32,000 bases of DNA from Acaryochloris marina MBIC11017. Its GTDB lineage: Bacteria > Cyanobacteriota > Cyanobacteriia > Thermosynechococcales > Thermosynechococcaceae. The stretch is taken from contig NC_009925.1 in the NCBI RefSeq assembly GCF_000018105.1, positions 2,220,001 to 2,252,000 on the forward strand, written 5' to 3'. Positions 16,650 through 31,867 of this stretch are shown in pieces; within the stretch, counting starts at the first letter, position 1; each line of letters starts with the position of its first letter. The position numbers and the translations under genes are program-made. Under the pieces are notes generated by a model. The model was not told the origin of the DNA, made no database searches, and saw nothing but the letters and a program-made list of their open reading frames with translations.

Positions 16650-17177
16650 ATGCATCAGGCACTTCCAAAACTCTTCAAGAAGGATGCTTCCCCTATGCCA
16701 GAAGTTACGACTCCCATCCACCAAACTGGCGACTTTTTTGTGGATTATGAGGAAAAAGTCTTCCCCGATGTGCAGGCCGATCCGGGCGAAAAAGCCTTAG
16801 TTACCTTTCACACTGTCGCTTTTGAAGGATCAATTGGCTTGGTGAACCTATTGCAGGCCACCCGCCTGATTCGCAAAGGATTTGAGACTTCTGTTTTACT
16901 CTATGGTCCTGGTGTAACCCTGGGCGTCCAGCGCGGCTTTCCCAAACTTGGAGATGAAGCTTTCCCCGGTCATATGGCCATGAATAATCAGCTCGTCAAG
17001 ATTATGGAAGAAGGGGGCAAAGTCTATGCCTGCCGATTTGCCCTACAGGCCCTCTACGGTCATGGTGAACCCTCTTTGATTCCGGGGATTCGACCTATCA
17101 ATCCCTTGGATGTCTTGGATATTGTCTTGGTGCACCGCAAAGCAGGGGCCTTTATTCTCGATACCTGGACTATGTAA
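16650..17177 (+). CDS. Nit1C Hyp1 (MSMEG_0572/Sll0783-type nitrogen-starvation-response protein)
   Basis: This is the first gene of the operon, immediately upstream of the nitrilase, which is the position of Hyp1 in Nit1C clusters. If the predicted TSS is near 16634, ATG 16695 (MPEVTT..., preceded by GAAGGA) is the more likely start. Confidence 0.7.
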
Positions 17178-17207
17178 TCGTTGGGCCAGCCCCTTGAGGT
17201 CATCGTT

Positions 17208-18206
17208 ATGGATCACGAAAAAGCAGTACGAGCTGCTGCGGTGCAGATCAGTCCGGTCTTGTTCAGTCGAGAAGGGACCACGGAGAAGGTTTTGGATGCG
17301 ATCGCATCTGCGGCCCAAGAAGAGGTGCAATTGATTGTCTTCCCGGAAACCTTTGTCCCCTACTATCCCTATTTCTCCTTTGTTCAGCCGCCCGTGGTGA
17401 TGGGGAAGGCCCATATGCAGCTGTATGAAGAAGCAGTGACTGTGCCGGGAGCCGTGGTGGATGCCATCAGCCGAGCCGCTCGCTCCTACGAAATGGTGGT
17501 GGTTCTGGGGGTGAATGAGCGGGAGGGCGGTTCCCTCTATAACACCCAACTGATCTTTGATGCCGATGGCACCTTGGGGCTGAAGCGACGCAAGATTACC
17601 CCTACCTACCACGAACGGATGGTCTGGGGACAAGGAGATGGGGCTGGACTCGCCGTCCTAGAGACGGCAGTGGGTCGGCTAGGGGCCTTGGCCTGCTGGG
17701 AGCATTACAATCCCCTAGCTCGCTATGCCCTGATGGCTCAGCAGGAAGAAATTCACTGTGGGCAGTTCCCCGGATCCATGGTGGGGCAAATCTTTGCCGA
17801 CCAAATGGAGGTGACCATGCGTCACCATGCTCTAGAGTCGGGCTGTTTCGTGGTCAATGCCACGGGCTGGCTTACCCCAGAGCAAAAGCAGCAAATTACC
17901 GCCGATGAAAAACTGCAAAAAGTCCTCAGTGGCGGCTGCTATACCGCCATTATTAGCCCCGAGGGGGTGCCCCTCTGCGACCCCGTGACCGAGGGAGAAG
18001 GGATGGCCATTGCCGATCTCGATTTCTCCCTGATTACCAAACGCAAACGAATGATGGACTCCGTAGGCCATTATTCCCGCCCCGATTTGCTGCAGCTGCA
18101 GGTCAACCAACAAGCGTGGGCCGTAATGCAATCGGCTCCCACCGTACCGCTCCCAGAGCAGGATTCTCCCTTATCCAGTGAGCCCATCCCTCACCCCGTC
18201 GATTAA
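17208..18206 (+). CDS. Nitrilase (carbon-nitrogen hydrolase superfamily, Nit1C/Nit6803-type)
   Basis: Glu-Lys-Cys catalytic triad contexts: [15 protein letters not shown] and [11 protein letters not shown]. The track start 17181 is a TTG. ATG 17208 follows GAGG at 17196-17199. Confidence 0.92.
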
Positions 18207-18215
18207 CCCAAGATT

Positions 18216-19301
18216 ATGGACAAACAACATCTAATTACTGAACTGCAATCGAACGGACTGCAGGTGATTGCCCCCAGTATTGGCGTAGCGGGTCGTCGGG
18301 GTGGGGCCGGTCCCTCGGATCATAAAGCGGTGACGGTGGATGGGACGACGGTGATGGTTCCGATTTATACGGGAACCGCCAGCCAGTCCCCCTATACCGC
18401 CCAGGTGAATCAAGGCCGGCAAGCGGTGTTAGAGAAAGCCGACCAGGCCGTGGCCACGGTGGAATTTCCTCGGCAACCCCAGTTTTACCAACTACAAACG
18501 GCAGAGGGCATTCCCTACTGGAAGATTGCCCTCCTCCATAGCCATGACGTGTTGGCCACCACGGTATTGCAAACCTGTATGCGGTATCGCGATCCTGATA
18601 CGGCCTGCCAGTTTTGTGCCATTGAAAAGTCCCTAGAGGCGGATCGGACCATTGCTCGCAAAACACCGGAACAACTAGCAGAAGTGGCGGAAGCAGCAGT
18701 GCGCCTGGACGGGGTCCAGCATATGATTATGACCACCGGGACGCCCAATACCCGCGATCGCGGAGCTGCCTACTTAGCCGAATGTGCCCAAGCCATTAAA
18801 GCTCGGGTCAACCTACCGATTCAGGCCCAATGCGAACCCCCGGATGGTTTTGGCTGGTTTGCCCAGATGAAGGCGGCAGGTATCGACAGTTTGGGAATGC
18901 ACCTAGAAGCCGTCGATCCACAGGTGCGATCGCAAATCATGCCCGGTAAAGCCGAAGTCCCCCTATCCCATTACTTTGAAGCCTTTGATGCCGCAGTACA
19001 GGTATTTGGCTGGGGTCAAGTTTCCACCTATTTATTGGCTGGACTGGGCGATAGCCTGGACACGCTGGTGGAGGCTTCACAACGACTTATTGATTTGGGG
19101 GTATATCCCTTTGTTGTGCCCTTTGTCCCTATTTCCAGTACCCCCTTAGCCAATCATCCCGCCCCCAGCAGCGAGTTTATGTTTACCCTCTATCAGCAGG
19201 TGGGGGCGATGCTCAAACAAGCGGGCATGTCCTCGGCAGATATCAATGCAGGATGTGCCAAGTGTGGGGCCTGTTCCGCTTTGTCTACGTTTGAAGCTTA
19301 A
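18216..19301 (+). CDS. Radical-SAM family protein, Nit1C-associated (MSMEG_0568/Sll0785-type)
   Basis: Third position in the Nit1C gene order. The Cys cluster is TCMRYRDPDTACQFCA (Cx9Cx2C). The body looks like a TIM barrel (MTTGTP..., GIDSLGMHLEA). The C-terminus has CAKCGAC. It starts 9 nt after the nitrilase stop. Confidence 0.8.
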   Translation: MDKQHLITELQSNGLQVIAPSIGVAGRRGGAGPSDHKAVTVDGTTVMVPIYTGTASQSPYTAQVNQGRQAVLEKADQAVATVEFPRQPQFYQLQTAEGIPYWKIALLHSHDVLATTVLQTCMRYRDPDTACQFCAIEKSLEADRTIARKTPEQLAEVAEAAVRLDGVQHMIMTTGTPNTRDRGAAYLAECAQAIKARVNLPIQAQCEPPDGFGWFAQMKAAGIDSLGMHLEAVDPQVRSQIMPGKAEVPLSHYFEAFDAAVQVFGWGQVSTYLLAGLGDSLDTLVEASQRLIDLGVYPFVVPFVPISSTPLANHPAPSSEFMFTLYQQVGAMLKQAGMSSADINAGCAKCGACSALSTFEA

Positions 19302-19371
19302 TTTTTAGAGGGTTTATGCCAGCAATCCCCCGATTGCTAGGTAGTACTATTTAGCAGCACAGAGGTATCTG

Positions 19372-19881
19372 ATGGCATCCAGTCGATATTGCTTTAAGTT
19401 GGCGCAATCTCCCCAGGATCTACGGGGATATTTTGACTTGCGTCAGTCTATTTTTTGCCAGGAACAAGGTCTATTTGAAGGGGACGATGAAGACGATATC
19501 GATACCACCGCCTATCCGATCGTAGCTATTGATCAAGAAGCACCTCCAGACCAACAGGTGGTCGGCGTAGTCCGCATTTACGAGGAGCAAGATCGCCTCT
19601 GGTACGGCGGTCGCTTAGGGGTTCATGCTGACTATCGGCGGGTGGGTCGCATCGGTAAGGGCCTGATCTATAAAGCCGTGACCACTGCTAATACTTGGGG
19701 ATGCGATCGCTTCTTGGCTACGGTCCAACTCCAGAACGTTCGGTTTTTTCAACGCCAGCACTGGGACTCCTTAGAAGAGATACAGATTTGCGATCGCCCC
19801 CATCACCTGATGGAAGCAGACTTAGCCTTCTATCCTCCCGGTCATGAACCCCGTCCCCAGCCCCTCCTGCAAGCCTCTTAA
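19372..19881 (+). CDS. GNAT N-acetyltransferase, Nit1C-associated (MSMEG_0567/Sll0786-type)
   Basis: The acetyl-CoA binding segment is LGVHADYRRVGRIGKGLIYKAV. An AGAGG SD lies upstream of ATG 19372. Its stop overlaps the next start (TAATG at 19879-19883). Confidence 0.85.
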   Translation: MASSRYCFKLAQSPQDLRGYFDLRQSIFCQEQGLFEGDDEDDIDTTAYPIVAIDQEAPPDQQVVGVVRIYEEQDRLWYGGRLGVHADYRRVGRIGKGLIYKAVTTANTWGCDRFLATVQLQNVRFFQRQHWDSLEEIQICDRPHHLMEADLAFYPPGHEPRPQPLLQAS

Positions 19882-20882
19882 TGCTGTCGGAGTTAGCCAC
19901 CGAATTACGACAAACCTTGGGCCTGCTGCATAAACGGGATATTCAACCCGTGGCCCGTCACTTGGGGGCTTGGGTCCCGGATAATACCACTCAAAAACCC
20001 ATTTGGTTAGGAGATGACTGTGCCGCTATCCCTGATGGTGAGGGTTATCTATTGCTGGCAGCGGAGGGCATGTGGTCCGTGTTGGTAGAAACAGAACCCT
20101 GGTTTGCAGGCTGGTGTGGAGTACTCGTCAACGTTAGCGATATCTATGCCATGGGAGGCAAACCGATTGCCGTAGTGGATGCCCTCTGGAGTCAGTCCAC
20201 GGATCAGGCAGAACAGCTTTGGCAAGGGATGCAAGCGGCATCTAAGGCCTTTAACGTGCCCATTGTTGGCGGCCATACTCACTGTCATAGCCCCTATAAA
20301 GCTCTATCGGTGGCAATTTTGGGACGCGCCCAACAGTTGATCACCAGTTTCAATGCCCAACCCGGCGATACCTTACTGCTGGTCACCGATCTCAAGGGTC
20401 AGCCCCATCCCAAATATCCGTTTTGGGATGCAGCGACAATGGCAGAACCCCAGACGCTACAGGCCCATCTCAATTTACTGCCCGCCCTGGCTGAGTCAGG
20501 ACTATGCGATGCCGGGAAAGACATTAGCATGGGGGGCTTAGTGGGCACCTTGTTGATGTTACTGGAGACTTCCGGTTGCGGGGCTGAGCTAGACCTAGAG
20601 GCGATTCCCTGTCCTTCGGATTTGGACTTCAAACAGTGGCTGGTGAGTTTTCCCAGTTATGGTTTTTTGCTCAGTGTTAGACCCGATTGTGTGGAGCCAA
20701 TCCAGCAGTTATTTGCCCCCCATGATTTGGTCTGTACAGCCATTGGACAAATCACGCCGGGGCATACCTTAACCCTAAAATCTAGCGCTGAGTCAACTTC
20801 CTTCTGGGACTTGAGCCAAGAATCCCTCACGGGTTTTTCTCCATCCCACGCAGACCGGAAGCACAACCCATCAAACCTCTAA
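19881..20882 (+). CDS. AIR-synthase-related (PurM/ThiL/HypE/SelD-fold) protein, Sll0787-type
   Basis: Motifs LGDDCAAIP, NVSDIYAMGGKP, VGGHT and KDISMGGLVGT are typical of the AIR-synthase-related superfamily. This is the fifth gene in the Nit1C order. Confidence 0.85.
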   Translation: MLSELATELRQTLGLLHKRDIQPVARHLGAWVPDNTTQKPIWLGDDCAAIPDGEGYLLLAAEGMWSVLVETEPWFAGWCGVLVNVSDIYAMGGKPIAVVDALWSQSTDQAEQLWQGMQAASKAFNVPIVGGHTHCHSPYKALSVAILGRAQQLITSFNAQPGDTLLLVTDLKGQPHPKYPFWDAATMAEPQTLQAHLNLLPALAESGLCDAGKDISMGGLVGTLLMLLETSGCGAELDLEAIPCPSDLDFKQWLVSFPSYGFLLSVRPDCVEPIQQLFAPHDLVCTAIGQITPGHTLTLKSSAESTSFWDLSQESLTGFSPSHADRKHNPSNL

Positions 20883-21998
20883 ATTGGGCGGTTGTCGATC
20901 TTGCAGTTGGGCCATTTCGCGATGGAGTTCGGCCTGGAGTTCAGCTTCAGTGGGGAGGTGGAGTTGATAGCGGCTGGCAAAGATTTTGGTTTGTTGGTTG
21001 GGACCAAGGGTGTATTTGACCACGGCATCATTTTTGTCAGAGCAGAGGATTAGACCAAGGGTGGGGTTGTCGTCTGGGGCGCAGCGTTCGAGATCGTAGT
21101 AGTTGACGTAGAGCTGGAGCTGACCAAGGTCGCCGTGGTTGAGTTTGCCGACTTTCAGATCGATCAGAATGTAGCACTTAAGGATGGTGTGGTAGAAAAC
21201 GAGATCAATATAGAAGTGATCGCCTTCGAGGCTGATCCGTTCTTGGCGGGAGACAAAGGCAAATCCTTTGCCCAGTTCGAGCAGAAAGGTTTGCAGGTTG
21301 CTAATCAGGGCGGTTTCGAGGTCGGATTCGACGATACGAGGGGATTCGGGAAGGCCAAGGAATTCAATCACGACAGGGTCTTTGAATACATCGCTGGGAG
21401 TTTGGATAATTTGGCCTTCGGTGGCGAGCTGCATCAGTCCGGCTTTATCGGTGCTTTTGGCGAGGCGCTCAAATAGAAGGCTGCTAATTTGGCGTTCGAG
21501 TTCGCGGGCGGACCAGTTATTTTTGAGCGCTTCGATTTCATAGAAGGATCGGGCATCCAGATTATCGACTCGCATCAGTCTTCGGTAATGGGTCCAAGAC
21601 AGATTGGGATGAAGTTGACCGGGTTGCCAGTTGGGGTTGGATTGAAGGATTTTCGAGAGGTTGAAGGGGGCATCAGAAAGGCTACTCACCGCGTAGCCTT
21701 TGTCCTGGTCACCCAAAAGTTGCGGATAAGCAAAATAAAATTGACGGATAAATTTGAGATTGGCGTAGGAAAAGCCTTTACCAACATCTTTGGTCAGTCT
21801 ACGAGAAAGGTCTTTGAGGAGGTTTTCGCCATATTCGGCCCGCTGTTGTCCCTGTTGTTCTTGTTCGACAATTTCGCGCCCGATCAGCCAGTAGGAGACG
21901 ACTTGTGTCGTATTGACGGTTCGGGAAACGCCGATTTGGGCGGCGTTGAGGATGTCGCGAATACGTTGATATAGCAAATCGGGGTGATTATCGTTCAT
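20871..21998 (-). CDS. DUF1016/YhcG-family PD-(D/E)xK nuclease
   Basis: 375 aa. The N-terminal LYQRIRDIL...SYWLIGREIVEQEQQG..RAEYGE.LLKDLSRRL...FSYANLKFIRQFYFAY is the typical DUF1016 head. The C-terminal nuclease core is FYIDLVFYH...YILIDLKVGKL. It starts 38 nt after the hsdS stop. Confidence 0.85.
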   Translation of the reverse strand: MNDNHPDLLYQRIRDILNAAQIGVSRTVNTTQVVSYWLIGREIVEQEQQGQQRAEYGENLLKDLSRRLTKDVGKGFSYANLKFIRQFYFAYPQLLGDQDKGYAVSSLSDAPFNLSKILQSNPNWQPGQLHPNLSWTHYRRLMRVDNLDARSFYEIEALKNNWSARELERQISSLLFERLAKSTDKAGLMQLATEGQIIQTPSDVFKDPVVIEFLGLPESPRIVESDLETALISNLQTFLLELGKGFAFVSRQERISLEGDHFYIDLVFYHTILKCYILIDLKVGKLNHGDLGQLQLYVNYYDLERCAPDDNPTLGLILCSDKNDAVVKYTLGPNQQTKIFASRYQLHLPTEAELQAELHREMAQLQDRQPPNLEV

Positions 21999-22036
21999 GG
22001 GAACGGGCTTACAGGGGTGGCACTTAGACCTAAAAC

Positions 22037-23758
22037 CTAAACTTCTAGCTGGCCTACTACAGCAGCGGCAAGGGCTGTGGCTTTTTCCTGGGTTTCGTGC
22101 AGGTGGGCTTCGAGGTTGTCACAGAAGGTCATCAGTTGATCGACTTTGATGACTATGCGTTTTTGTTCAGCGAAAGGGGGAAGAGGAAAAACGAATTGCT
22201 TAAGGGAACGAATATTAACATGAGGGACAGTCATTCCAGCCGCATCATTTAATGCTTGATTAAAAATGACTGGAGCATTCATAACCCAAGAAAAAAAGTA
22301 GGGATCTATATTCGAAGCTACACGGAATTGCATCATACGCTGTGAAAGACATATTTCACATTGCGGTGGAACAACCGCCGCTATCCCAAAATTTCCCTCT
22401 CTCGAATAAAAAATATCTCCCTCTTGTGGTATGAGTCTTTGAGTTTGTGTTTGATACTCTTCTATCCCAACTTTTCGAGCTTGATCAACAAGGATTTTAC
22501 CTGGCTGTATATCTGAAGTTCGAATTGCAGGATAACCATTCTCTTGATACTTAGGTGTTCGATGTAAGCAATCAACAATATGAGTGCAAATTGTCTCAAC
22601 ACGAACCCATGTCCACGACCTTGGAATTTGAAACGGCTGTTCTACTTCATCTAAGGGCTTGATTTTCCTAAGTTTGGGAAACGGCTTCTTTTTTGATAAT
22701 GCATTTTTTTCATGCTGAGCCTGCTCAATGACTTTATCTACAGAGCCATCAGTAACAGTCTGTTTCGATAATTTGCCTCTTGCTCCTAGCTGCAAGATGA
22801 CTTTGCGGACGGTCTCAACTTCTTCAGGTTCCTGAATTAGGCATTCCCAATGCTCTTGAACAAATTCCCAGGCCGTATTTAGCGATTCATCTGTTTCAGC
22901 ATTCATCAGGGCATCGTTCGCACTTGCTCGCATTTTTGTTCGTAGGGTGTTGCGATCGCACTTCGATACCTCATAGCGATCGCACATTGCCATCAATTCA
23001 TCCACCTTCGCCACAATCCGCTTCTGCTCTGCAAGAGGTGGTAGTGGTAGACAAATTTGTTCTACGTCTTTAACTCGCAGATGCTTAACTGTCATTCCAA
23101 CAGCATTACTAGCAAGTCGCTTGATTAAACCTGGTTCAGTCAACGCTAACAGTACAAAGTTTCGATCTACAAACTGTTCAAAGACACGAATTAGCATTGT
23201 TCGCTGTCCCAAACAAACTTTCATCCCATCAGGAATAATAGTGGCTTCACCCATTGGAGCTTCGCGCGTAAAGATAATGTCTCCTGGCTCAGGGAAGCAT
23301 CTTCGTGACCAAAACTCATATGTGTCTTGATCTACATATTTCATCCCATGAAAACGGAACTGGCGATTTCTGATATTAGTCGTTCGTATTAGTGGAATAC
23401 CTTCGAAAGTGGTGGGAGCTGTTTTGTTATGACAATCCACAACCAAAAGAGATAAATCAATTAGATGTGCTATCGACCAATTTGACGGTATATCAAAGGG
23501 GGGGACAGAGGATTCTAAAGCAGAGAGCTTTTTCAACATTCTGCGATACTCAGTATTGGAATCCGCAGTTTTTGCTAAATGTTCAGCTCGCTCATTCCTC
23601 AGATTTGCAAGCTGTTCTTGAGCTTGTCCTTCTGTCGGATCTTGCGGCACTAACTTTCCCCGTACCGCCAAATCCAAAATCAACTCCCGCAGCCGTTGCA
23701 CCCCACCCGGCGCTTCCGCAATCACCTCGAAATTATCCCAAAATGTTGGCAAATCCAT
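22037..23758 (-). CDS. hsdS: Type I restriction-modification specificity subunit HsdS (two target-recognition domains)
   Basis: There is an internal duplication. Each half begins with ...L(I/L)L(D/Q)L(A/G)(V/A)RGKL... and ends with LPLPPLAEQKRIVAKVDELMAMCDRYE or FPLPPFAEQKRIVIKVDQLMTFCDNLE. The two intervening regions are AT-rich and variable, as expected for TRDs. Confidence 0.9.
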   Translation of the reverse strand: MDLPTFWDNFEVIAEAPGGVQRLRELILDLAVRGKLVPQDPTEGQAQEQLANLRNERAEHLAKTADSNTEYRRMLKKLSALESSVPPFDIPSNWSIAHLIDLSLLVVDCHNKTAPTTFEGIPLIRTTNIRNRQFRFHGMKYVDQDTYEFWSRRCFPEPGDIIFTREAPMGEATIIPDGMKVCLGQRTMLIRVFEQFVDRNFVLLALTEPGLIKRLASNAVGMTVKHLRVKDVEQICLPLPPLAEQKRIVAKVDELMAMCDRYEVSKCDRNTLRTKMRASANDALMNAETDESLNTAWEFVQEHWECLIQEPEEVETVRKVILQLGARGKLSKQTVTDGSVDKVIEQAQHEKNALSKKKPFPKLRKIKPLDEVEQPFQIPRSWTWVRVETICTHIVDCLHRTPKYQENGYPAIRTSDIQPGKILVDQARKVGIEEYQTQTQRLIPQEGDIFYSREGNFGIAAVVPPQCEICLSQRMMQFRVASNIDPYFFSWVMNAPVIFNQALNDAAGMTVPHVNIRSLKQFVFPLPPFAEQKRIVIKVDQLMTFCDNLEAHLHETQEKATALAAAVVGQLEV

Positions 23759-24204
23759 TAGACTTCCAGCTCATCTACAACCAAAACCTGCAGCTCAGCC
23801 ACCTTCTTCAGCTGAAAATCATTTGTCAAAAAACCATCACATCCAGACACAATCGCAGTCGCAAGCTGCAAAGCATCCGGTAACTTCAGAGAATATTGAA
23901 CCCGTAATTGAGCCGCTTTTACCGCGATTCCGGCATCAATCGCAACAAAGGTCGTAAACGCTGCCGTTGTGATCACATCCGTGAAAACCTGTTGTTGTTG
24001 AGAATTGCTATCTCTTAGAGGAAACATCAACGTTTCCGCCAAGGTCACCGGAGAAGTCACCGCCACAAAATCTCCTCGACTCAGACTCCGAAAAATCGGT
24101 TGCAACAGCACAAAATACTGCGGATGTTGCTCTACATAGTAAATAACAGGTGCGGTATCGAGGAACAATCGATTGATGCCGGAAAGCACCGCATCGATCC
24201 TCAT
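23758..24204 (-). CDS. vapC: PIN-domain toxin (VapC-like)
   Basis: LFLDTAPVIYYVE near the N-terminus (first acidic residue of the PIN fold) and FLTNDFQLKKV near the C-terminus. ATG 24204 overlaps the upstream stop as ATGA (plus-strand tcat at 24201-24204). Its own stop overlaps the hsdS ATG (TAATG at 23760-23756). Confidence 0.75.
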   Translation of the reverse strand: MRIDAVLSGINRLFLDTAPVIYYVEQHPQYFVLLQPIFRSLSRGDFVAVTSPVTLAETLMFPLRDSNSQQQQVFTDVITTAAFTTFVAIDAGIAVKAAQLRVQYSLKLPDALQLATAIVSGCDGFLTNDFQLKKVAELQVLVVDELEV

Positions 24205-24686
24205 ACCGATGTTTGCCACTGATTTTCGCGATCGTCCCACTCATCACGCATTTTCGTCACCCAAACCTGCGCATTTTCTTCTCTACCAGCACCAGCCGCA
24301 ATCCCCTCTAACTCTAGCCACGATCGTTTAGATGCGATAGTCTCCGCCTCAATATCAGCTAAATCTTCGACCCACTCTGCCCAGCGTCGTTTTAGTTCAG
24401 CTTGATCCACTTGCTCTGCTGCTTGAGACTGAGGATTGGATATGGTCTCTGCATTCGAATATTCCTTAGCCAATAGCAGGACTTCATCCAAATTCCTGAC
24501 ATCCCCCGCCGCAATATCCGCTTCTGCTCTGGCAATAAACGCATCCAATCGTCCCGCCTCCGCATCCGTCTTAATCTGTGCATCCCAGGCATCATCTAAA
24601 TAATCCACCAACCATGCTGACAACTGCCGTGCCTCATCCTCCGGCAACTGTCGAATTGCTGCTTCAATTTCAGCCACTGTGGTCAT
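24201..24686 (-). CDS. Antitoxin-like protein, unusually long (161 aa; apparently two antitoxin-like modules)
   Basis: ATG 24686 is preceded by a strong AAGGAG SD. The track start 24728 is a TTG that overlaps hsdM. The N-terminal part MTTVAEIEAAIRQLPEDEARQLSAWLVDYL..WDAQIKTDAEAGRLD resembles addiction-module antitoxins. The C-terminal SWLELEGIAAG....AQVWVTKMRDEWDDRE resembles cyanobacterial partners of PIN toxins. Confidence 0.6.
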   Translation of the reverse strand: MTTVAEIEAAIRQLPEDEARQLSAWLVDYLDDAWDAQIKTDAEAGRLDAFIARAEADIAAGDVRNLDEVLLLAKEYSNAETISNPQSQAAEQVDQAELKRRWAEWVEDLADIEAETIASKRSWLELEGIAAGAGREENAQVWVTKMRDEWDDRENQWQTSV

Positions 24687-24715
24687 CTCGCCATCTCCTT
24701 GCTCAAAGGATTTTC

Positions 24716-26182
24716 CTATTCTAAACAATCTCGCAAAGCCGCTTGTAAAGCCGATCTCGCTTCATCCGCCTGTTGCACAGCAAACCGATACTTATCCAGC
24801 AATACCGCCGCATCCTCATGCACCTCCCCCGCTGCATTCGGATTCTTTACATCCAGATTGTAGTTATTCGCCTGAATCTCCTGCAGCGACACCTTCCAGG
24901 CAAACTCATTCTCCTCCCGCTGCTCCCACCACGCCTTCTCCGGCCCAAACTCCTCAATCCGCATCGGCTTCGTCTTCGAGTAGGACTTATACCCCTTGGG
25001 ATAAGGATGCTCGTAATACCAAATCTCCTGGGTCGGCTCCCCCTTGGTAAAAAACAACAGATTCGTCTTAATGCTCGTATAGGGTGCAAACACCCCATTC
25101 GGCAACCGCACAATCGTATGTAAATTACACTCCCGCAGCAGCTTTTCCTTAATCCGCGTTTTAATCCCTTCCCCAAATAACGTCCCATCCGGCAACACAA
25201 TCGCGGCCCGTCCGCCTGCCTTCAGCAGCTCCATCACCAACACCAGAAACAGATCCGCCGTCTCCCGCGTGCGGAACTCCGTTGGGAAACCCCGCTCAAT
25301 ACCATCCTCCTCCATGCCCCCAAAGGGCGGATTGGTCACCACCACATCCACCTGATCCGCCCGTGCATAATCCCGTAAGGGCTTGCGCAATGTATTGTCA
25401 TGGCGCACATTGGTTGGCACCTCCAGGCCATGCACCAGCATATTCGTCACGCAGAGCAAATGAGGTAGAGGCTTCTTCTCTACCCCCCAAACCCCCTGCT
25501 TGGCCTGCTCCAAATCCTGCGAACCCTGCACCTGTTGCTTCAAATGCTCAAAGGCGCAGGTCAAAAATCCCCCCGTGCCGCAGGCCGGATCCAGCACCCG
25601 CTCTCCCAACTGCGGATTCACCCTATCAATGGCAAACTGGGTGACCGCACGGGGCGTATAAAACTCGCCCGCATTGCCTGCCCCTTGAAGATCCTTGAGC
25701 AACTGCTCATACATATCCCCAAACAAGTCCCGCTGCTTCGACTCATTAAAATCGATATTGTCATTGATCTTATTCACCACCTGCCGCAGCAACGTGCCCG
25801 ACTTCATATAGTTGTAGGCATCTTCAAACACCGATCGCAGCAGTGCGCCCCGCCCCTGAGCAATTCCCTCTAGGTCTTCTAGGTCCAACTCCTTTAGGGC
25901 CGGAAACAAGCAATTATCCACTAGATCCAGCAGTGCCTCTCCCGTCAACGCCTGCTTGCCCAATTGCTCACTATCCGCCCAGGCCGACCACTGCAGTTCC
26001 GCTGGAATCGGAGACTCATAGTCATCCACTAGGGCTTCCAGTTCCAAGTCCTGGTCGCTAAAAATCTTAAAAAACAGCATCCAGCCCAACTGTCCGATGC
26101 GCTGGGCATCTCCATCGACCCCCACATCCTTGCGCATGATGTCTTGAATCGACTTAATCGTGGCGGATAAAGACATAGCCAT
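24716..26182 (-). CDS. hsdM: Type I R-M N6-adenine DNA methyltransferase subunit HsdM
   Basis: SAM-binding motif VLDPACGTGGFL, catalytic motif VVTNPPFGG, and an HsdM N-terminal helical domain. Confidence 0.95.
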   Translation of the reverse strand: MAMSLSATIKSIQDIMRKDVGVDGDAQRIGQLGWMLFFKIFSDQDLELEALVDDYESPIPAELQWSAWADSEQLGKQALTGEALLDLVDNCLFPALKELDLEDLEGIAQGRGALLRSVFEDAYNYMKSGTLLRQVVNKINDNIDFNESKQRDLFGDMYEQLLKDLQGAGNAGEFYTPRAVTQFAIDRVNPQLGERVLDPACGTGGFLTCAFEHLKQQVQGSQDLEQAKQGVWGVEKKPLPHLLCVTNMLVHGLEVPTNVRHDNTLRKPLRDYARADQVDVVVTNPPFGGMEEDGIERGFPTEFRTRETADLFLVLVMELLKAGGRAAIVLPDGTLFGEGIKTRIKEKLLRECNLHTIVRLPNGVFAPYTSIKTNLLFFTKGEPTQEIWYYEHPYPKGYKSYSKTKPMRIEEFGPEKAWWEQREENEFAWKVSLQEIQANNYNLDVKNPNAAGEVHEDAAVLLDKYRFAVQQADEARSALQAALRDCLE

Positions 26183-26216
26183 TCCTCAAAACCGATGCTA
26201 AAGCGTGAGGCGCTGT

Positions 26217-28571
26217 CTACGCCCCTGGAGAAGCTGATTCATCATCGTACAGCATCCGCGCCAACTCACTTACCGCTGCCCGATATTGCTTCTTCCCCCC
26301 AAACTGTTTCAACAACTCCACAGGCGTCCCTAACTGGGCAAACGGCTCCAACTGCAGAACCTTCGCATCCTCCATAGAGACCACCCCCTGATCGGCATAC
26401 TTCTCCAACAGACCTTCCAACACCGCCCGCGCGGTCTCCCCATATTGCGTAAACACATCTCGCTTGCGCACCTGGTTGGCTCGCTCTCGTCTGGTTTTGG
26501 GGGGCTGATCAAAGGCCACATGGCAAATCAAATCAAAGAGGTCATACTCTGCCCCCACCTGTTTGGCTAATGCTTCCACCATCACTCCGTGGGACTGGAG
26601 TTCCTCCAAGATCGCCGACTTGCGATCCGCCTTATTCCATTTCCCCAAAAAGCGATCCAGAGACTGATACGCCTCATTAATCGTCCGACGGTTATAGTCC
26701 TTGAGGGATTCCGTCGTCAGTTTCCCCTCCTTGTCGTAGTAGCTCACCCGCTCCCGCGCCACCATAAATTCCTGACGCCCCACTTGGTATTTCACCCGTT
26801 CAGCAGAACCATCATCGAAGGCTGGGTCAAGGGTGACATCTCTAGGCTCTGACTGGGCCGAGGATGGACCAACACCAAACTGCTCATCCTGAATCGGAGG
26901 CCCATCCCAATCCTCATCGTTAAACAATGCCGTAGCATTGCGAAAATCAATAATGGTGAAAAAGTTTTTGCCAAAGTCGGGGCGTAACCGCGTCCCTCGC
27001 CCCACAATCTGCTTAAACTCGGTCATCGACTGGATCCGTCGATCCAAAACAATCACATGACAGGTTTGGGCATCCACCCCCGTCGTCATCAGCTTCGAGG
27101 TGGTCGTAATCACCGGATAGTCTTCTTTCGGATTGATAAAGTGATCCAGTTGGGCCTTCCCTTCCTTGTCATCCCCCGTTACCCGCATCACATAACGCCG
27201 ATCCTGCTCCACGAGGGGCCGATTCACCGCAACATTCACAAAAGCCTGCCGCATCCGCTCCGCATGGTCAATATCCTCACAAAAGACAATCGTCTTGCGC
27301 ATCGGGTCGCCTTGATGCAGAAACTCACTCACATACTCCGCCACCGCCTGGGTTCGCTGGTCAAACACTATATTGCGGTCAAAGTCCCGCAAATTGTACT
27401 CCCGCTGCTCGATCAATTGCCCCTGATCATCCACCTCATTGGCGTCCGGTATCCAGCCCTCTATATCCTTATCCAACTGCACCTGCACCCGACGGAACGG
27501 AGCCAAGAAACCATCCTCAATCCCCTGCCGCAGGGAATAGGTGTAAATGGGTTCACCAAAATAATCAATATTAGAGACGTATTGAGTTTCCTTAGGAGTA
27601 GCGGTTAAGCCTAACTGAGTGGCGCTGGTAAAATAATCCAACACCTGTCGCCAGTTAGAATCCTCCGCTGCGCTGCCCCGGTGACATTCATCAATCACAA
27701 TCAAATCAAAGAAATCTGCCGGGAACTTGCTGTACAGATCCTCCTGGCCTTCCTGGCCAATAATCGCCTGGTAAATACCGAGATAGACCTCATAGGAGGT
27801 ATCAATCTTGCCATTGTCGTCTACCAGTTTGCGCGTCAGCTTAGTCATCACCTGGCCAAAAGGGCGAAAATCATTGGTAATGGTTTGATCCACCAACGCA
27901 TTGCGATCGGCTAAAAACAGCACCCGCTTCACCACCCGCTTTTTCCACAGTCGCCAAATAATATTGAAAACCGTGTAAGTCTTTCCAGCTCCCGTCGCCA
28001 TCACTAGGAGACAGCGCTTCTGCCCCTTGGCAATAGCCGCCAAGGTCTGATTGATCGCCAACTGCTGATAGTAGCGGGGCTTCTTCCCTCCTATCTCAAA
28101 ATAATAAGGCGAGGTGAGCAGCGCCTCGTCCACCCCCAACAACCCTTGGCTCTGACGATACCGTTGCCACAGCTCATCCGGTGACGGAAACACCTCCAGC
28201 GCTAGCGCCTGCTCCACCTGAGGATAAGTACCACTGCGATCATGGAGCAAAAAGCCATCCCCATTCGAAGAAAACACAAACGGAACCTGCAAAGTCTCGG
28301 CATATCCCAGGGCCTGCTGCATTCCCGCCCCCAAACTATGTTTGTTATCCTTGGCTTCAATTACGGCAATCGGCTGGTTCTGAGGGTAAAACAGCAAATA
28401 ATCTGCTCGCTTGCGTTTTCCCCTCGTCGTCAATTGCCCCCGCACAATGATCTGCCCATCCGTAAAGCCATATTCCCGCCGGATTTGGCTTTTCTTCCAA
28501 CCCGCCGCATCAATCGCCGGAGTAATATAGCGATCGCAAATATCCACTTCACTCAGAGATTTTTTGGTCAT
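26217..28571 (-). CDS. hsdR: Type I R-M restriction endonuclease/translocase subunit HsdR (EcoEI/EcoAI-like, probably family IB)
   Basis: N-terminal PD-(D/E)xK nuclease (ADYLLF...IAVIEAKDN). SF2 motor with MATGAGKT and VIDECHRG. The C-terminal segment (FDLICHVAFDQPPKTRRERA...LQLEPF...FGGKKQY) resembles the EcoEI R C-terminal domain. ATG at 28571; the track start 28574 is a TTG. Confidence 0.95.
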   Translation of the reverse strand: MTKKSLSEVDICDRYITPAIDAAGWKKSQIRREYGFTDGQIIVRGQLTTRGKRKRADYLLFYPQNQPIAVIEAKDNKHSLGAGMQQALGYAETLQVPFVFSSNGDGFLLHDRSGTYPQVEQALALEVFPSPDELWQRYRQSQGLLGVDEALLTSPYYFEIGGKKPRYYQQLAINQTLAAIAKGQKRCLLVMATGAGKTYTVFNIIWRLWKKRVVKRVLFLADRNALVDQTITNDFRPFGQVMTKLTRKLVDDNGKIDTSYEVYLGIYQAIIGQEGQEDLYSKFPADFFDLIVIDECHRGSAAEDSNWRQVLDYFTSATQLGLTATPKETQYVSNIDYFGEPIYTYSLRQGIEDGFLAPFRRVQVQLDKDIEGWIPDANEVDDQGQLIEQREYNLRDFDRNIVFDQRTQAVAEYVSEFLHQGDPMRKTIVFCEDIDHAERMRQAFVNVAVNRPLVEQDRRYVMRVTGDDKEGKAQLDHFINPKEDYPVITTTSKLMTTGVDAQTCHVIVLDRRIQSMTEFKQIVGRGTRLRPDFGKNFFTIIDFRNATALFNDEDWDGPPIQDEQFGVGPSSAQSEPRDVTLDPAFDDGSAERVKYQVGRQEFMVARERVSYYDKEGKLTTESLKDYNRRTINEAYQSLDRFLGKWNKADRKSAILEELQSHGVMVEALAKQVGAEYDLFDLICHVAFDQPPKTRRERANQVRKRDVFTQYGETARAVLEGLLEKYADQGVVSMEDAKVLQLEPFAQLGTPVELLKQFGGKKQYRAAVSELARMLYDDESASPGA

Positions 28572-28856
28572 CAAACAAAAAATAAAGGTATTTTAAGCGT
28601 GAACAGCATCCAGCTCGCTCCTACTCATCATACCCAGGTAAATCACCTATGGTTCGGCAGTTTGATAGGTCTATTCCTCTCGATCTGGGCCTTGCCTGTC
28701 TCTGCTTACACCCTATTCCCTAGATCTCGGCCTGCAAAGTTCCCAGAGTTATGTCACCCATTTACACACCCAATAACACCCAATTCAGGTGTTGGATTCG
28801 ACAGGGCATCCCTTTAGACTATTGGCATTCAATTTATCAGAGCCAAGGGCCAACCC

Positions 28857-30014
28857 ATGTCCGCCGCACCCCTATCAATCGCACTGTTGACCTATGCCAC
28901 AAAACCACGGGGCAGCGTTATCCATACCCTAGAACTGGCGGCAGCGCTTACCGCTTTGGGCCATCAAGTTTATGTATATGCCCTCGATAAAGATGGAAAA
29001 GGATTTGAGCGAATCCTACCTCATCCCGTACAACTTATTCCTGCTCAAGCCGCCCCTAGCGATATTGATGCCCTGATCCAGCAACGGATTCAGGAATTTG
29101 TAAGTTTCTTAGGAGCACATCCCCATAAACACGATATCTATCATGCTCAGGATTGCATTAGTGTCAACGCTTTAATGCAGCTTCGCCAAACCCAACATCT
29201 CCCCCACGTCGTCCGCACCGTCCATCATATTGAAGACTTCCAGAGTCTCTATTTACAGCAGTGCCAAGACCGCTCAATTCGAGACCCCGACTTATGTTTA
29301 TGCGTCAGTGATTACTGGCAAGAGAGGCTCGTCACTGAGTACCACATCACCGCCCCTCGGGTAACAAATGGCGTTAATTTAGAGCGGTTTTCTCTTATTC
29401 CCACTGGACAAGAATCTGTGCTTAAAGAAGCCTTAGGTTTGCATGGATCTCCCATTTATCTGACGGTGGGTGGAATTGAACCGCGAAAAAATTCCATTCG
29501 GTTACTCACAGCCTTTGCCCAAGTATTACAGAACAGACCCCAAGCCCAACTCGTGATTGCGGGCGGTGCAACCCTGTTTGACTACCAAGCGTATCGAGAC
29601 CAGTTTTTCCAGCAAGTCCAGACATTGCAAATTGATATTGGACGATCTCTAATTTTGCCGGGGGTTGTGCCTGATGCTGATCTTCCGGTGCTTTATCGTT
29701 GTGCGGATGCCTTTTGTTTCCCGTCTTTGAAAGAAGGATGGGGACTGGTCGTTCTAGAAGCGATCGCATCTGGGTTACCGCTGCTTCTCTCTGACCAACC
29801 GCCGTTTACAGAATTTTTAGGTAGGGAACAGGCCGTGTGGGTCAATCCCCAAGATCCTGACCAGATGGCTAAAGGGATGTTGAGCCTTGATCCGACCTAC
29901 GGTTCTGTATACCTCTCCTCTGCCACCCCAATTTTGGACCAATATTCCTGGCATCAGTCAGCGCTTTCTCATGTGGAACAATATCAGCGCTTACGGGCTA
30001 ACCACCAGGAATAA
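28857..30014 (+). CDS. GT4-family glycosyltransferase, probably the Nit1C-associated MSMEG_0565-type
   Basis: GT-B fold with the E-x7-E motif in FPSLKEGWGLVVLEAIASGLP. The N-terminal YATKPRGSVIHTLELAAAL is typical of GT4. The family subtype is inferred from the neighbouring Hyp2 gene and from the known Nit1C gene content. Confidence 0.8.
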   Translation: MSAAPLSIALLTYATKPRGSVIHTLELAAALTALGHQVYVYALDKDGKGFERILPHPVQLIPAQAAPSDIDALIQQRIQEFVSFLGAHPHKHDIYHAQDCISVNALMQLRQTQHLPHVVRTVHHIEDFQSLYLQQCQDRSIRDPDLCLCVSDYWQERLVTEYHITAPRVTNGVNLERFSLIPTGQESVLKEALGLHGSPIYLTVGGIEPRKNSIRLLTAFAQVLQNRPQAQLVIAGGATLFDYQAYRDQFFQQVQTLQIDIGRSLILPGVVPDADLPVLYRCADAFCFPSLKEGWGLVVLEAIASGLPLLLSDQPPFTEFLGREQAVWVNPQDPDQMAKGMLSLDPTYGSVYLSSATPILDQYSWHQSALSHVEQYQRLRANHQE

Positions 30015-30291
30015 ATTGAATCATTTGTACCTTGGGATCGGCGAGATCTTGATAGGTCTGAGCCCGAGTTTCCAGAGATTGCAGTTGTCCTAAGGCGAGG
30101 CTGCAAGGCATACCATATTTAGCTTTTACTCGGTCGCTGGCAATGGTCAGAGCGGTTTGTGATCGCGCCATAAAGTCACTCAATTCATAGGTACTTCCTG
30201 GCTCGAAATAGTCTTTGACGACCAAGGAAGGTGAATAGCAGGTTTCCTGGGTACCGTCGGGCCATTGGATTTGAAAGCGAATTTCTGGCAT
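29998..30291 (-). CDS. 97-aa protein, probably Nit1C Hyp2 (MSMEG_0570/NitG-type)
   Basis: MPEIRFQIQWPDGTQETCYSPSLVVKDYFEPGSTYELSDFMARSQTALTIASDRVKAKYGMPCS... matches my recollection of the small conserved Nit1C hypothetical. Its 3' end overlaps the convergent glycosyltransferase gene by 17 bp. Confidence 0.6.
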   Translation of the reverse strand: MPEIRFQIQWPDGTQETCYSPSLVVKDYFEPGSTYELSDFMARSQTALTIASDRVKAKYGMPCSLALGQLQSLETRAQTYQDLADPKVQMIQFIPGG

Positions 30292-30338
30292 GGGGCAAAG
30301 TGCAAAGGGAGATAAGTGAAACAGATTTCCTGACCTTT

Positions 30339-30382
30339 ACTTTAACGGCGCAGGGGGAGTCGCAAGTTGTACTGGTTGATAC
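30339..30382 (-). promoter_or_regulatory. Candidate NtcA-type promoter in the Hyp2 / GAF-LuxR divergent gap
   Basis: GTACTGGTTGATAC (perfect GTA-N8-TAC, 30369-30382). On the minus strand, TAAAGT (TAN3T) follows 24 nt downstream at 30344..30339. I found no good -10 at the right spacing on the plus strand. Confidence 0.4.
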
Positions 30383-30457
30383 AAAGTGAGGGGAGTCTTT
30401 TTTATTCAATAAAGAAGTGATCCGTTCTCTTGAGCCATTCCAGCCCCAAGCCACACC

Positions 30458-31867
30458 TTGCTAAATTCTGTTCAGTTACTCTCCGATCTTCAGGATGTCA
30501 ATGCGATTGGTCAAAGTATTTCTGGGTGCTTAGAACCAGCAGAAATTGCCCATCGTGTCACTGAAGCGTTGGTCCAGCGTTTTCAATGTGCCTTTGCTCG
30601 CATCTGGTTAACGGACACTGATCAGCAAGCTCTGACCTTAGTTGCCTCTTCTGGGCTGTATACCCATACCAATGGTTCTTTTGCCCATGTGCCCATGGGT
30701 GCCTATAAGGTGGGCAAGATTGCCCAAAACCGAGTGCCGTTTTTAAGTAATTATTTACCGGATGAACCCTGGGTCAAGGATCGAGACTGGGCAATTGCCA
30801 ATCAAATTCAAGGGTTTGCCGGGTATCCGCTAATGGCGGGTGATCGGGTGTTAGGAGTCCTGGCCACCTTTAGTCATACTCCCCTCGCTCCAGAATTCCT
30901 GGAAGTTCTGCAAATGCTGTGTCTGACGACAACTATTGCCTTAGATGCCGCACTTCAGTCTCAGAGAACGATACCCAAATCTGTGTCTCAAAGTGGGGCA
31001 ATAGCCCTTTCCGATCAACTGGCAAAGGTGCTCACCTCAACTCAGTTAATGTTGGTGGGCACGGAGCGGGATCTTCCGGCTTCTATGGCCTATGCCCTGC
31101 TGCGCGGGGTGGAGCTGTTAACCCAACTGGATTGCAGCTATTGCCGCTTGACCTATGGTGAACAAGCCGTATTGTTGGATGCAATCGCAATCTTCCCCCC
31201 TAACATCCGTGAAGATCTGTTAGAGCAAACTGCCTCTCCCTTAGCCGAGCTACAGCGGCTGACTCTGTGGCTGGGAGGGACATTGACTACCCAACCGGAC
31301 CCCCAAGATCGCGTGTTTGAGCTGACTTTAACGCTGCCCTATGGGGCTGCAACTGAGCATTTCTCCGTGTCCGTCCACTGTCAACAGTCTGTCTTACAAC
31401 TGGCATTTACCCATCTATGTTTGCAAGCAGGCTTAAATCTGAAAGAAATGACGTCTGCCAAAACAGCAGAATCAAATTGTCAAGAAGTCCTGCTGACAGA
31501 TCGTCTGGATATCCCATCGTCTAAGTCACCTATCATTTGGATTCAGCATTCCCCTCGGGGGCAGATCCCTGCAGCAGCTCAAGCGGTGGTGACACTGGAT
31601 ATTATTCCTCAGCAACTCTATACAGTTGTGGCTCAAGTTTCGCAAGGCCAAGCGGCTTTGCCTGAGCTAATCGCTCCTACGTTATCCGACCGGGAACAGG
31701 AAATTATGCGGTTGTTATCTCAAGGGCTAAGAGATCGCGATATTGCCAACCGATTACATATCAGCGAAAGTACCGTTCGGTTTCACGTCAACAATACTTT
31801 GACCAAGTTAAAGGCCAAAAATCGGTATCAAGCGGTTTATGAGGCTACTAGTCGAGAGTGGATTTAG
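30458..31867 (+). CDS. GAF-domain + LuxR-type HTH transcriptional regulator
   Basis: N-terminal GAF-like region (ARIWLTD....LTLVASSGLY...GYPLMAGDRVLGVLATFS). The C-terminal LSDREQEIMRLLSQGLRDRDIANRLHISESTVRFHVNNTLTKL is a LuxR HTH. The only start in frame near the 5' end is TTG 30458, so the start is uncertain. Confidence 0.8.
   Translation: MLNSVQLLSDLQDVNAIGQSISGCLEPAEIAHRVTEALVQRFQCAFARIWLTDTDQQALTLVASSGLYTHTNGSFAHVPMGAYKVGKIAQNRVPFLSNYLPDEPWVKDRDWAIANQIQGFAGYPLMAGDRVLGVLATFSHTPLAPEFLEVLQMLCLTTTIALDAALQSQRTIPKSVSQSGAIALSDQLAKVLTSTQLMLVGTERDLPASMAYALLRGVELLTQLDCSYCRLTYGEQAVLLDAIAIFPPNIREDLLEQTASPLAELQRLTLWLGGTLTTQPDPQDRVFELTLTLPYGAATEHFSVSVHCQQSVLQLAFTHLCLQAGLNLKEMTSAKTAESNCQEVLLTDRLDIPSSKSPIIWIQHSPRGQIPAAAQAVVTLDIIPQQLYTVVAQVSQGQAALPELIAPTLSDREQEIMRLLSQGLRDRDIANRLHISESTVRFHVNNTLTKLKAKNRYQAVYEATSREWI

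Follow-up and report, generated by a model that had tools for sequence, protein, structure and literature searches.

The Nit1C gene cluster of the cyanobacterium Acaryochloris marina MBIC11017 is split by six minus-strand genes, which encode a type I restriction-modification (R-M) system and associated proteins. The cluster lies in a 32,000-nucleotide stretch of the chromosome (NC_009925.1, positions 2,220,001 to 2,252,000), referred to below as the window, and coordinates are positions within it unless a relative is named. An earlier note on this DNA had described a 7.7-kb island, precisely bracketed by an 8-bp direct repeat, between an AIR-synthase-like (AIRS) gene and a glycosyltransferase gene. 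In this study, we compared the locus with its relatives. The slot between these two genes is multi-allelic in the genus Acaryochloris. Sequence comparisons make it probable that the R-M genes constitute a 7.9-kb type IB operon that is an old allele of this slot, and that the octamer pair, CATCAAAC, is coincidental.

The gene content and coordinates named in the earlier note were all borne out by the open reading frame (ORF) listing and by family searches with Pfam, NCBIfam and PADLOC. As had been supposed, the six genes are a foreign defence cassette at a place where AIRS and the glycosyltransferase adjoin in other cyanobacteria. The annotation of the locus is corrected with respect to the island boundaries, the C-terminus of AIRS, which is chimeric, and the lack of a target duplication.

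Relatives were collected by scanning a genome collection with the AIRS protein, which gave 80 loci. Exact-protein look-ups with Hyp1, Hyp2 and close homologues of the glycosyltransferase and DUF1016 proteins added about 30 further loci (L081-L111), mostly from the Acaryochloris clade.

Boundaries of the island

In all relatives, homology to the window is continuous up to position 20839. The native left flank (16695..20839, plus strand, assigned with Pfam and NCBIfam) comprises Hyp1, nitrilase, radical SAM and GNAT genes and codons 1-320 of the AIRS gene. Homology then ends with ...GGTTTTTC| in five independent alleles that lack DUF1016 (L090, L098, L100, L101 and L002), which places the left breakpoint at 20839|20840. 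On the right side, homology to cassette-free alleles restarts at 28758 with a 28-nt motif, CCATTTACACACCCAATAACACCCAATT, i.e., the breakpoint is 28757|28758. The island between these points (20840..28757, minus strand, 7,918 bp) contains a type IB R-M operon, within which a putative toxin-antitoxin pair is nested and at the end of which is a gene for a DUF1016 nuclease. Relatives with an empty site do exist: L090 and L098 have a gap of 190 bp between AIRS and glycosyltransferase, without the cassette.

The left breakpoint lies within the AIRS gene. Its stop codon (TAA, 20880-20882) and that of DUF1016 (TCA, which is TGA on the minus strand, 20871-20873) confirm a convergent overlap of 12 bp, on the basis of which the last ~4 AIRS codons had been proposed to be island-derived. 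The proposed origin stands, but the length does not. In alleles without DUF1016, AIRS has 324 aa and ends with ...GFSK(S/F/V)(D/S)(L/S/P), and in all DUF1016-type alleles it reads ...GFS-PSHADRKHNPSNL or variants of this. The tail of 13 codons, PSHADRKHNPSNL, and the stop (20840..20882, plus strand) are read from the strand opposite to the 3' end of DUF1016 and the 31-nt trailer that follows it. Thus, the last 4 native AIRS codons were replaced by 13 island-derived codons on insertion, and the chimeric protein has 333 aa.

The two copies of CATCAAAC are found on the plus strand at 20869..20876, inside the island and over the DUF1016 stop, and at 28569..28576, over the hsdR ATG. They are, as reported, 7,700 bp apart, but they do not bracket the island. 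The left copy is 29 bp inside the left breakpoint, the right copy is ~180 bp inside the right breakpoint, and both are within coding or start-codon sequence of island genes. In 7 of 10 DUF1016-bearing lineages, the left octamer is CATCAAAT. A homologous operon at an unrelated locus (L105, see below) carries the octamer at neither end. The window has four occurrences of CATCAAAC against 1.39 expected. For two fixed 30-nt windows of this sequence, the probability of a common direct 8-mer is 0.0085, or 0.016 with inverted matches, in agreement with the 1-2 percent that had been estimated in the earlier note; taken alone, this value is suggestive. At the true breakpoints, neither a target-site duplication nor terminal inverted repeats were found, nor long direct repeats beyond chance. 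Since the octamers are off the breakpoints in the empty-site alignments and vary among relatives, we regard the pair as a chance match and not as a target duplication.

Alternative contents of the slot

Across about 20 Acaryochloris-clade loci, the interval between AIRS and glycosyltransferase is found in at least six states. The full island occurs in four versions, which differ in the target-recognition domains of hsdS and in the insert between hsdM and hsdS. Only positions 22813-23047 and 23631-23758 of the window hsdS align with other Acaryochloris alleles, and the insert is an antitoxin with a PIN gene, another PIN pair, or a ParE-like pair with others. In L083 and L088, DUF1016 is broken into two ORFs. 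Three loci (L001, L099 and L097) contain DUF1016 only, which is truncated to 272 aa in L097. L096 and L091 carry remnants (a 217-nt DUF1016 3' end, an internal piece of DUF1016, toxin-antitoxin genes and an hsdM 3' fragment) joined ~70 nt upstream of the glycosyltransferase start, and these remnants show decay of the island by deletion. The remaining states are a Fic-domain gene on the minus strand in L100 (A. marina CP064923) and L101-L104, the 190-bp "empty" sites of L090 and L098, and another convergent gene in L002.

The "empty" sites of L090 (9826-9850) and L098 retain ~15 nt of the 5' coding end of Fic (...GTAGTATCGAACAT/C; compare L100, 9906-9921). To judge from these residues, Fic was apparently removed almost precisely at these sites, which would not be pristine.

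The left breakpoints vary with the type of cargo, which argues for independent illegitimate events and not for a site-specific integrase. Consistent with the statement in the earlier note that mobility genes are lacking, a scan that covered the island genes and 21 other window ORFs, but not several smaller ones, detected no domain of an integrase or a transposase. A plasmid search for a donor of the island yielded a single match, 128 bp of hsdM with 77.5% identity to a Leptolyngbya plasmid, and no donor was found.

Relatives without R-M genes therefore hold other DNA at this position (Fic, DUF1016 alone or toxin-antitoxin remnants), an outcome that the earlier note had itself set against its insertion model. 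With regard to the features of a core defence hotspot, the flanks are conserved, the cargo is variable, and defence and toxin genes (type I R-M, PIN, ParE-like, DUF1016 and Fic) dominate this cargo in the loci sampled.

In an unrelated cyanobacterium (L063, positions 10924-15602, metagenome-assembled genome P01_D01_bin.156), the gap between AIRS and glycosyltransferase has three minus-strand genes. These encode a TIR-domain protein, an 893-aa STAND/TPR NTPase and a 2OG-Fe(II) oxygenase, and represent an independent defence-like insertion.

Organization of the restriction-modification operon

All island genes are on the minus strand. The hsdR gene (26217-28571) encodes a restriction/translocase subunit of the EcoAI/FtnUII (type IB) family, which matches NCBIfam NF046051 with 1134.7 bits (cut-off 550). 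It is full length, as the model covers residues 6-776 of 784, and PADLOC REase_I gives 1053 bits. Upstream of hsdR is an island-specific leader and promoter region (28572..28757, minus strand), which is conserved in three R-M-bearing lineages and has no counterpart in empty or Fic alleles. The hsdM methyltransferase gene (24716-26182) matches Pfam N6_Mtase (263.8 bits) and HsdM_N and PADLOC MTase_I (726.9 bits). Its score against the TIGR00497 equivalog (77.8, under the cut-off of 242.75) places it outside that subfamily.

Between hsdM and hsdS is a nested variable slot (23758..24686) occupied by a PIN-domain toxin gene (23758-24189, or to 24240; PIN domain, 55 bits) and, upstream of it, a gene for a putative antitoxin of 161 aa (24201-24686), the two being a candidate VapBC-type pair. 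The hsdS gene (22037-23758) encodes a protein of 573 aa with two target-recognition domains, which is matched by Pfam Methylase_S in two stretches and by PADLOC Specificity_I over residues 19-570 (375.9 bits). The last gene (20871-21998) encodes a DUF1016/YhcG PD-(D/E)XK nuclease (Pfam PF06250 and PF17761; PADLOC candidate defence family PDC-S02, 462.9 bits). HsdR, HsdM and a two-domain HsdS are thus all present and intact, as expected of a type I system of the EcoAI family. An ORF of 191 aa on the opposite strand (28242-28817), antisense to hsdR and without a family match, was treated as spurious.

The hsdS stop and the DUF1016 start are 38 bp apart, and the remaining island genes overlap or are nearly contiguous. 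The arrangement is that of a predicted single operon, hsdR-hsdM-antitoxin-PIN-hsdS-DUF1016. In a filamentous cyanobacterium, LEGE 11480 (L105), we found the order hsdR, hsdM, small ORF, PIN, small ORF, hsdS and DUF1016 between unrelated neighbors, a Wzy-like gene and a gene for a GGDEF/EAL response regulator, one at either side. The DUF1016, HsdM and HsdR proteins there have 84%, 82% and 68% amino acid identity, respectively, with those of the window, and the N-terminal 80 aa of the putative antitoxin are 62% identical to the product of a 74-aa gene at the same position. The presence of an operon with the same gene order at an unrelated locus indicates that DUF1016 is part of the R-M unit, and the earlier note was right to count it among the island genes. 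This agrees with published cases in which DUF1016 accompanies subunits of type I R-M systems (PMC3424549, PMC9881135) and with its inclusion among the PADLOC candidates.

If the system functions like its homologues, HsdM2S would methylate a bipartite target and HsdR would cut unmodified incoming DNA. The toxin-antitoxin pair could stabilise the operon or serve as a back-up, and the DUF1016 protein may act as an accessory nuclease.

Age, composition and recombination

Composition does not set the island apart, as a k-mer and GC comparison suggested by the earlier note might have done. Its GC content is 0.498 against ~0.50, and its tetranucleotide distance (0.0143) does not stand out from that of control segments of equal length taken from elsewhere in the window (0.0153 +/- 0.0034). 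Composition speaks neither for nor against a foreign origin.

A recent clean insertion does not fit the divergence of the island, which is near that of the flanking core genes. Between the window and clade I lineages, four-fold-site divergence is 21-28% for Nit1C and flanking core genes, 22-27% for DUF1016 and 16-20% for hsdM and hsdR. The match between DUF1016 and core genes suggests that the cassette has been at the locus for about as long as the lineages have diverged. Compared with L083, divergence is 19% in hsdR, 4% in the glycosyltransferase gene and 0% in a downstream GAF-LuxR regulator gene, a drop that marks a recent homologous-recombination breakpoint at the right edge of the island. 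A neighbor-joining tree of the Hyp1-AIRS region has two subclades, each with both Fic-type and DUF1016-type alleles; their presence in both subclades indicates either allele exchange or a long-standing polymorphism.

The upstream side of Nit1C is also mosaic and variable. Over 10156-16000, identity of the window to L088 is 98.9% (10156-11820) and then 93.5% (11822-14583). Upstream of Hyp1, L088 has an extra Uma2 gene and, between the monooxygenase gene and Hyp1, a DUF6880 gene, and L098 has a TIR_2 gene.

Regulation and detachment of the glycosyltransferase gene

The island had been thought to separate the glycosyltransferase gene from an NtcA-driven operon promoter. An NtcA-type box, GTAGTTATTGATAC (16586..16599, plus strand), is indeed present ~96 bp upstream of the Hyp1 start, and its sequence and position suggest that it is probably the nitrogen-regulated promoter of the Hyp1-nitrilase-radical SAM-GNAT-AIRS genes. 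Only two GTAN8TAC sites occur in the 32-kb window, at 16586 and 30369, and both are conserved in position in 7 relatives, with a variable N8 spacer. The second box, GTACTGGTTGATAC (30369-30382), is in the intergenic region between the divergent Hyp2 and GAF-LuxR genes, and Hyp2, GAF-LuxR or both may be nitrogen-regulated on their own. The GTAN8TAC scan found no box upstream of the glycosyltransferase gene, in its interval with hsdR. Promoter and terminator scans of 20600-30400 gave fewer matches than shuffled sequences and were hence uninformative.

The island is not what detached the glycosyltransferase gene. This gene follows AIRS within -24 to +299 bp, mostly by less than 60 bp, in 32 of 62 informative cyanobacterial loci. 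Every Acaryochloris allele has a gap of at least 190 bp, usually holding a convergent gene, and the detachment therefore predates the R-M island and is independent of it. For studies of Nit1C and Sll0783, this means that the glycosyltransferase and Hyp2 genes of Acaryochloris are outside the operon with the NtcA box, and that strains differ in content between the two halves of the cluster.

The 28-nt motif at which homology restarts is native (28758..28785, plus strand, 72-99 bp upstream of the glycosyltransferase ATG). It contains a direct repeat of ACACCCAAT, in which the unit ACACCCA(A)T recurs at a distance of 11 nt from start to start. The motif is common to R-M, Fic and empty alleles and is not found in DUF1016-only alleles. 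A possible function, suggested by its repeat structure and location, is that of a transcription-factor or regulatory site for the glycosyltransferase gene.

Nit1C genes and other features of the window

The chromosome of A. marina MBIC10699 (AP026075) matches the window with 99.98-100% identity, and the paper on that genome (PMC9324425) is silent on genes for nitrilase, restriction or defence. On the left of the island, on the plus strand, the Hyp1 gene (best start 16695, end 17177) matches the Sll0783 family (TIGR04044, 290 bits). A look-up with a 175-aa Hyp1 ORF had no match; the recorded version is the 160-aa protein that starts at 16695. Genes for nitrilase (17181-18206, CN_hydrolase), radical SAM (18216-19301, Radical_SAM) and GNAT (19372-19881, Acetyltransf_1) follow, each assigned by Pfam alone. 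The AIRS gene (19881-20882) matches TIGR04049 with 507.7 bits, the model covering residues 2-319 only. This is the order of Nit1C, i.e., the Sll0783-Sll0787 families. Upstream of these genes and on the opposite strand is a flavin monooxygenase gene (14601-15893).

The native right flank (28857..30291, mixed strands) consists of the glycosyltransferase and Hyp2 genes. The former (28857-30014, plus strand) belongs, as the earlier note had assumed, to the Nit1C-associated MSMEG_0565 family (TIGR04047, 546.1 bits, cut-off 259.85). A partial match of 46 residues to Pfam GT4-conflict involves the common GT4 core and was not taken as a sign of a conflict gene. Hyp2 (29998-30291, minus strand) is a member of the MSMEG_0570 family (TIGR04042, 132.7 bits, cut-off 79.85). 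It is inverted in all Acaryochloris-clade loci, with a convergent overlap of 17 bp with the glycosyltransferase 3' end; in most other cyanobacteria (L005, L014, L043 and others were compared), it follows the glycosyltransferase gene on the same strand. The GAF-LuxR regulator gene (30458-31867) is beyond Hyp2.

Several Acaryochloris lineages have an extra gene of ~227 aa, without a Pfam match, between radical SAM and GNAT (L090, 7531-8217; L099, 6565-7248; L100, 6605-7288). It is not present in the window. Farther upstream in the window, an RTX-type protein of 1,296 aa (6808-10698, minus strand) has 34 matches to hemolysin-type calcium-binding repeats, and 7.7 tandem copies of a 327-bp unit with 75% identity span 8051-10580 within its gene. 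A gene of the ARPP-2 family (13411-14583, 391.5 bits) is preceded by an overlapping gene for a protein of 478 aa (11997-13433) that has a faint VWA_CoxE match only; L088 and L089 carry the same conserved pair.

Discussion

The data are most readily accommodated by the following history. The cassette may have arrived in a single ancient event of illegitimate recombination that involved neither a transposase nor an integrase. Since then, lineages would have traded alleles by homologous recombination, with the conserved Nit1C flanks as the regions of exchange, and the alleles would have decayed by deletion. Some observations weigh against this history or limit its precision. Most of the relatives are short metagenome or Logan contigs, and the intergenic alignment, at ~90% identity, fixes positions only to within a few bases. 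The putative antitoxin had no family match in Pfam, PADLOC and NCBIfam searches. In addition, hsdM and hsdR are slightly less diverged than DUF1016, and the change between full and DUF1016-only alleles may have run in the other direction, the latter being present in both subclades and keeping both copies of an imperfect repeat described below.

One reading offered in the earlier note, in which exactly 20871-28574 was inserted in one step and the 8-bp target site CATCAAAC was duplicated, has in its favor the occurrence of the octamer at both places, with a prior chance of ~0.9-1.6%. The empty-site comparison refutes this model, which we consider highly improbable. Five cassette-free alleles break at 20839|20840 and, on the right side, at or beyond 28758. 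Island genes contribute both octamers, as parts of their coding or start-codon sequence, the left one reads CATCAAAT in 7 of 10 lineages, and the homologous operon of L105 has no such ends. Finally, an insertion of this kind would have taken place without a transposase and without terminal inverted repeats. A more serious question is whether the island arose in two steps, with DUF1016 arriving first and the hsdR-hsdS block (~22030-28810) being inserted later, between it and the glycosyltransferase gene and in one subclade only. The DUF1016-only alleles (L001, L099 and L097) lack about this segment. In the window, CACTTAGAC (22021..22029, plus strand) is beside its left end and CCCTTTAGAC (28810..28819, plus strand) beside its right end, and in DUF1016-only alleles both copies of this imperfect repeat, CACTT(T)AGAC, are kept 3 nt apart (CACTTAGAC-CTT-CACTTTAGAC). 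Global alignment with L001 across the R-M indel gave scattered spurious blocks, and the junction was read by eye, with an uncertainty of a few bases. The retained repeat copies, the lower divergence of hsdM and hsdR, and the finding of DUF1016-only alleles in both subclades but of R-M alleles only in clade I would fit a late insertion. We nevertheless favor deletion of the R-M genes and consider the two-step origin unlikely, because hsdR-hsdM-toxin-antitoxin-hsdS-DUF1016 exists as a unit at the unrelated locus of L105 and because decay by deletion is directly seen in L096 and L091. The native 28-nt motif is kept by R-M alleles and missing from DUF1016-only alleles, a pattern that a deletion which began in hsdS and took in the motif would explain more easily. 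DUF1016 itself is truncated in DUF1016-only alleles or has a TTG start in place of its ATG, and the 38 bp between hsdS and DUF1016 leave no space for a promoter of its own.

A different possibility is functional coupling, in which the cargo is kept because it has a divergent control region in common with the glycosyltransferase gene, with co-regulation under nitrogen starvation, or because Nit1C is itself a conflict system. The junction between AIRS and glycosyltransferase would then serve, throughout the cyanobacteria, as a docking site used repeatedly by conflict genes, their expression wired to nitrogen starvation or Nit1C taking part in conflict. Such coupling would account for a cargo that is always on the minus strand and divergent from the glycosyltransferase gene, for the conserved 28-nt repeat motif in the intergenic region between them, for NtcA boxes on both sides of the region, and for the TIR, STAND-NTPase and 2OG-oxygenase genes, again on the minus strand, in the unrelated L063. 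However, roughly every second cyanobacterial cluster lacks the gap altogether, the hsdR-glycosyltransferase interval has no NtcA box, and the breakpoints that differ by cargo type suggest independent illegitimate events. Moreover, hotspots beside unrelated core genes are common (PMC10250203, PMC10121019). On balance, both the coupling and a docking site of this breadth seem improbable, and we retain the interpretation of an old R-M allele in a multi-allelic slot.

The cluster itself closely resembles the Nit1C clusters described by Podar et al. 2005 (PMC1199592), both in the order Hyp1-nitrilase-radical SAM-acetyltransferase-AIR synthase and in the flavoprotein gene upstream on the opposite strand, which is the cyanobacterial arrangement in that report. 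[quoted passage not shown] Acaryochloris differs in that at least 190 bp lie between AIRS and this gene and in the inverted orientation of Hyp2. As for the R-M system, HsdR (1134.7 bits on the family model) and intact HsdM and two-domain HsdS proteins resemble type IB EcoAI/FtnUII. The differences are the order hsdR-hsdM-...-hsdS, the embedded toxin-antitoxin pair and the trailing DUF1016 gene, and the present system is known from sequence.

PrrC in EcoprrI is an example of an accessory gene at a type I R-M locus. Genes for DUF1016, RhuM and GIY-YIG proteins have also been found between or beside the core genes of such loci (PMC9881135, PMC3424549). The Acaryochloris operon shares with them the co-occurrence of DUF1016 and the presence of unrelated small genes between hsdM and hsdS. 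Here, by contrast, DUF1016 follows hsdS instead of being between core genes, the embedded slot contains different toxin-antitoxin modules in sister strains, and machinery for phase variation, such as an invertase, is absent.

At the immigration control region of E. coli, hsd genes reportedly vary between strains in the manner of cassettes (Sibley and Raleigh 2004). That region likewise has alternative restriction systems or none at one position between conserved flanks, with exchange by homologous recombination and reshuffling of hsdS target domains. It differs in the organism and the flanks, and the alternatives in Acaryochloris are Fic, toxin-antitoxin remnants and DUF1016 alone rather than other R-M families.

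The closest parallels are the core defence hotspots of Pseudomonas aeruginosa (cDHS, PMC10250203) and E. coli (PMC10121019), in which conserved flanks enclose defence or toxin cargo that varies among strains. Many of these hotspots have no mobility genes, and their turnover has been ascribed to recombination through the flanks. The slot described here differs in that it is inside a conserved metabolic/regulatory cluster, Nit1C, of a cyanobacterium, in that one type of cargo has supplanted the 3' end of a neighboring gene, and in the number of loci sampled here, ~20. Overall, the locus is a defence hotspot free of mobility genes, of the kind already known from P. aeruginosa and E. coli. The general principles are unchanged by these findings, which add a clean cyanobacterial example with three nested levels of variation: the cargo of the slot, the target domains of hsdS and the toxin-antitoxin insert.

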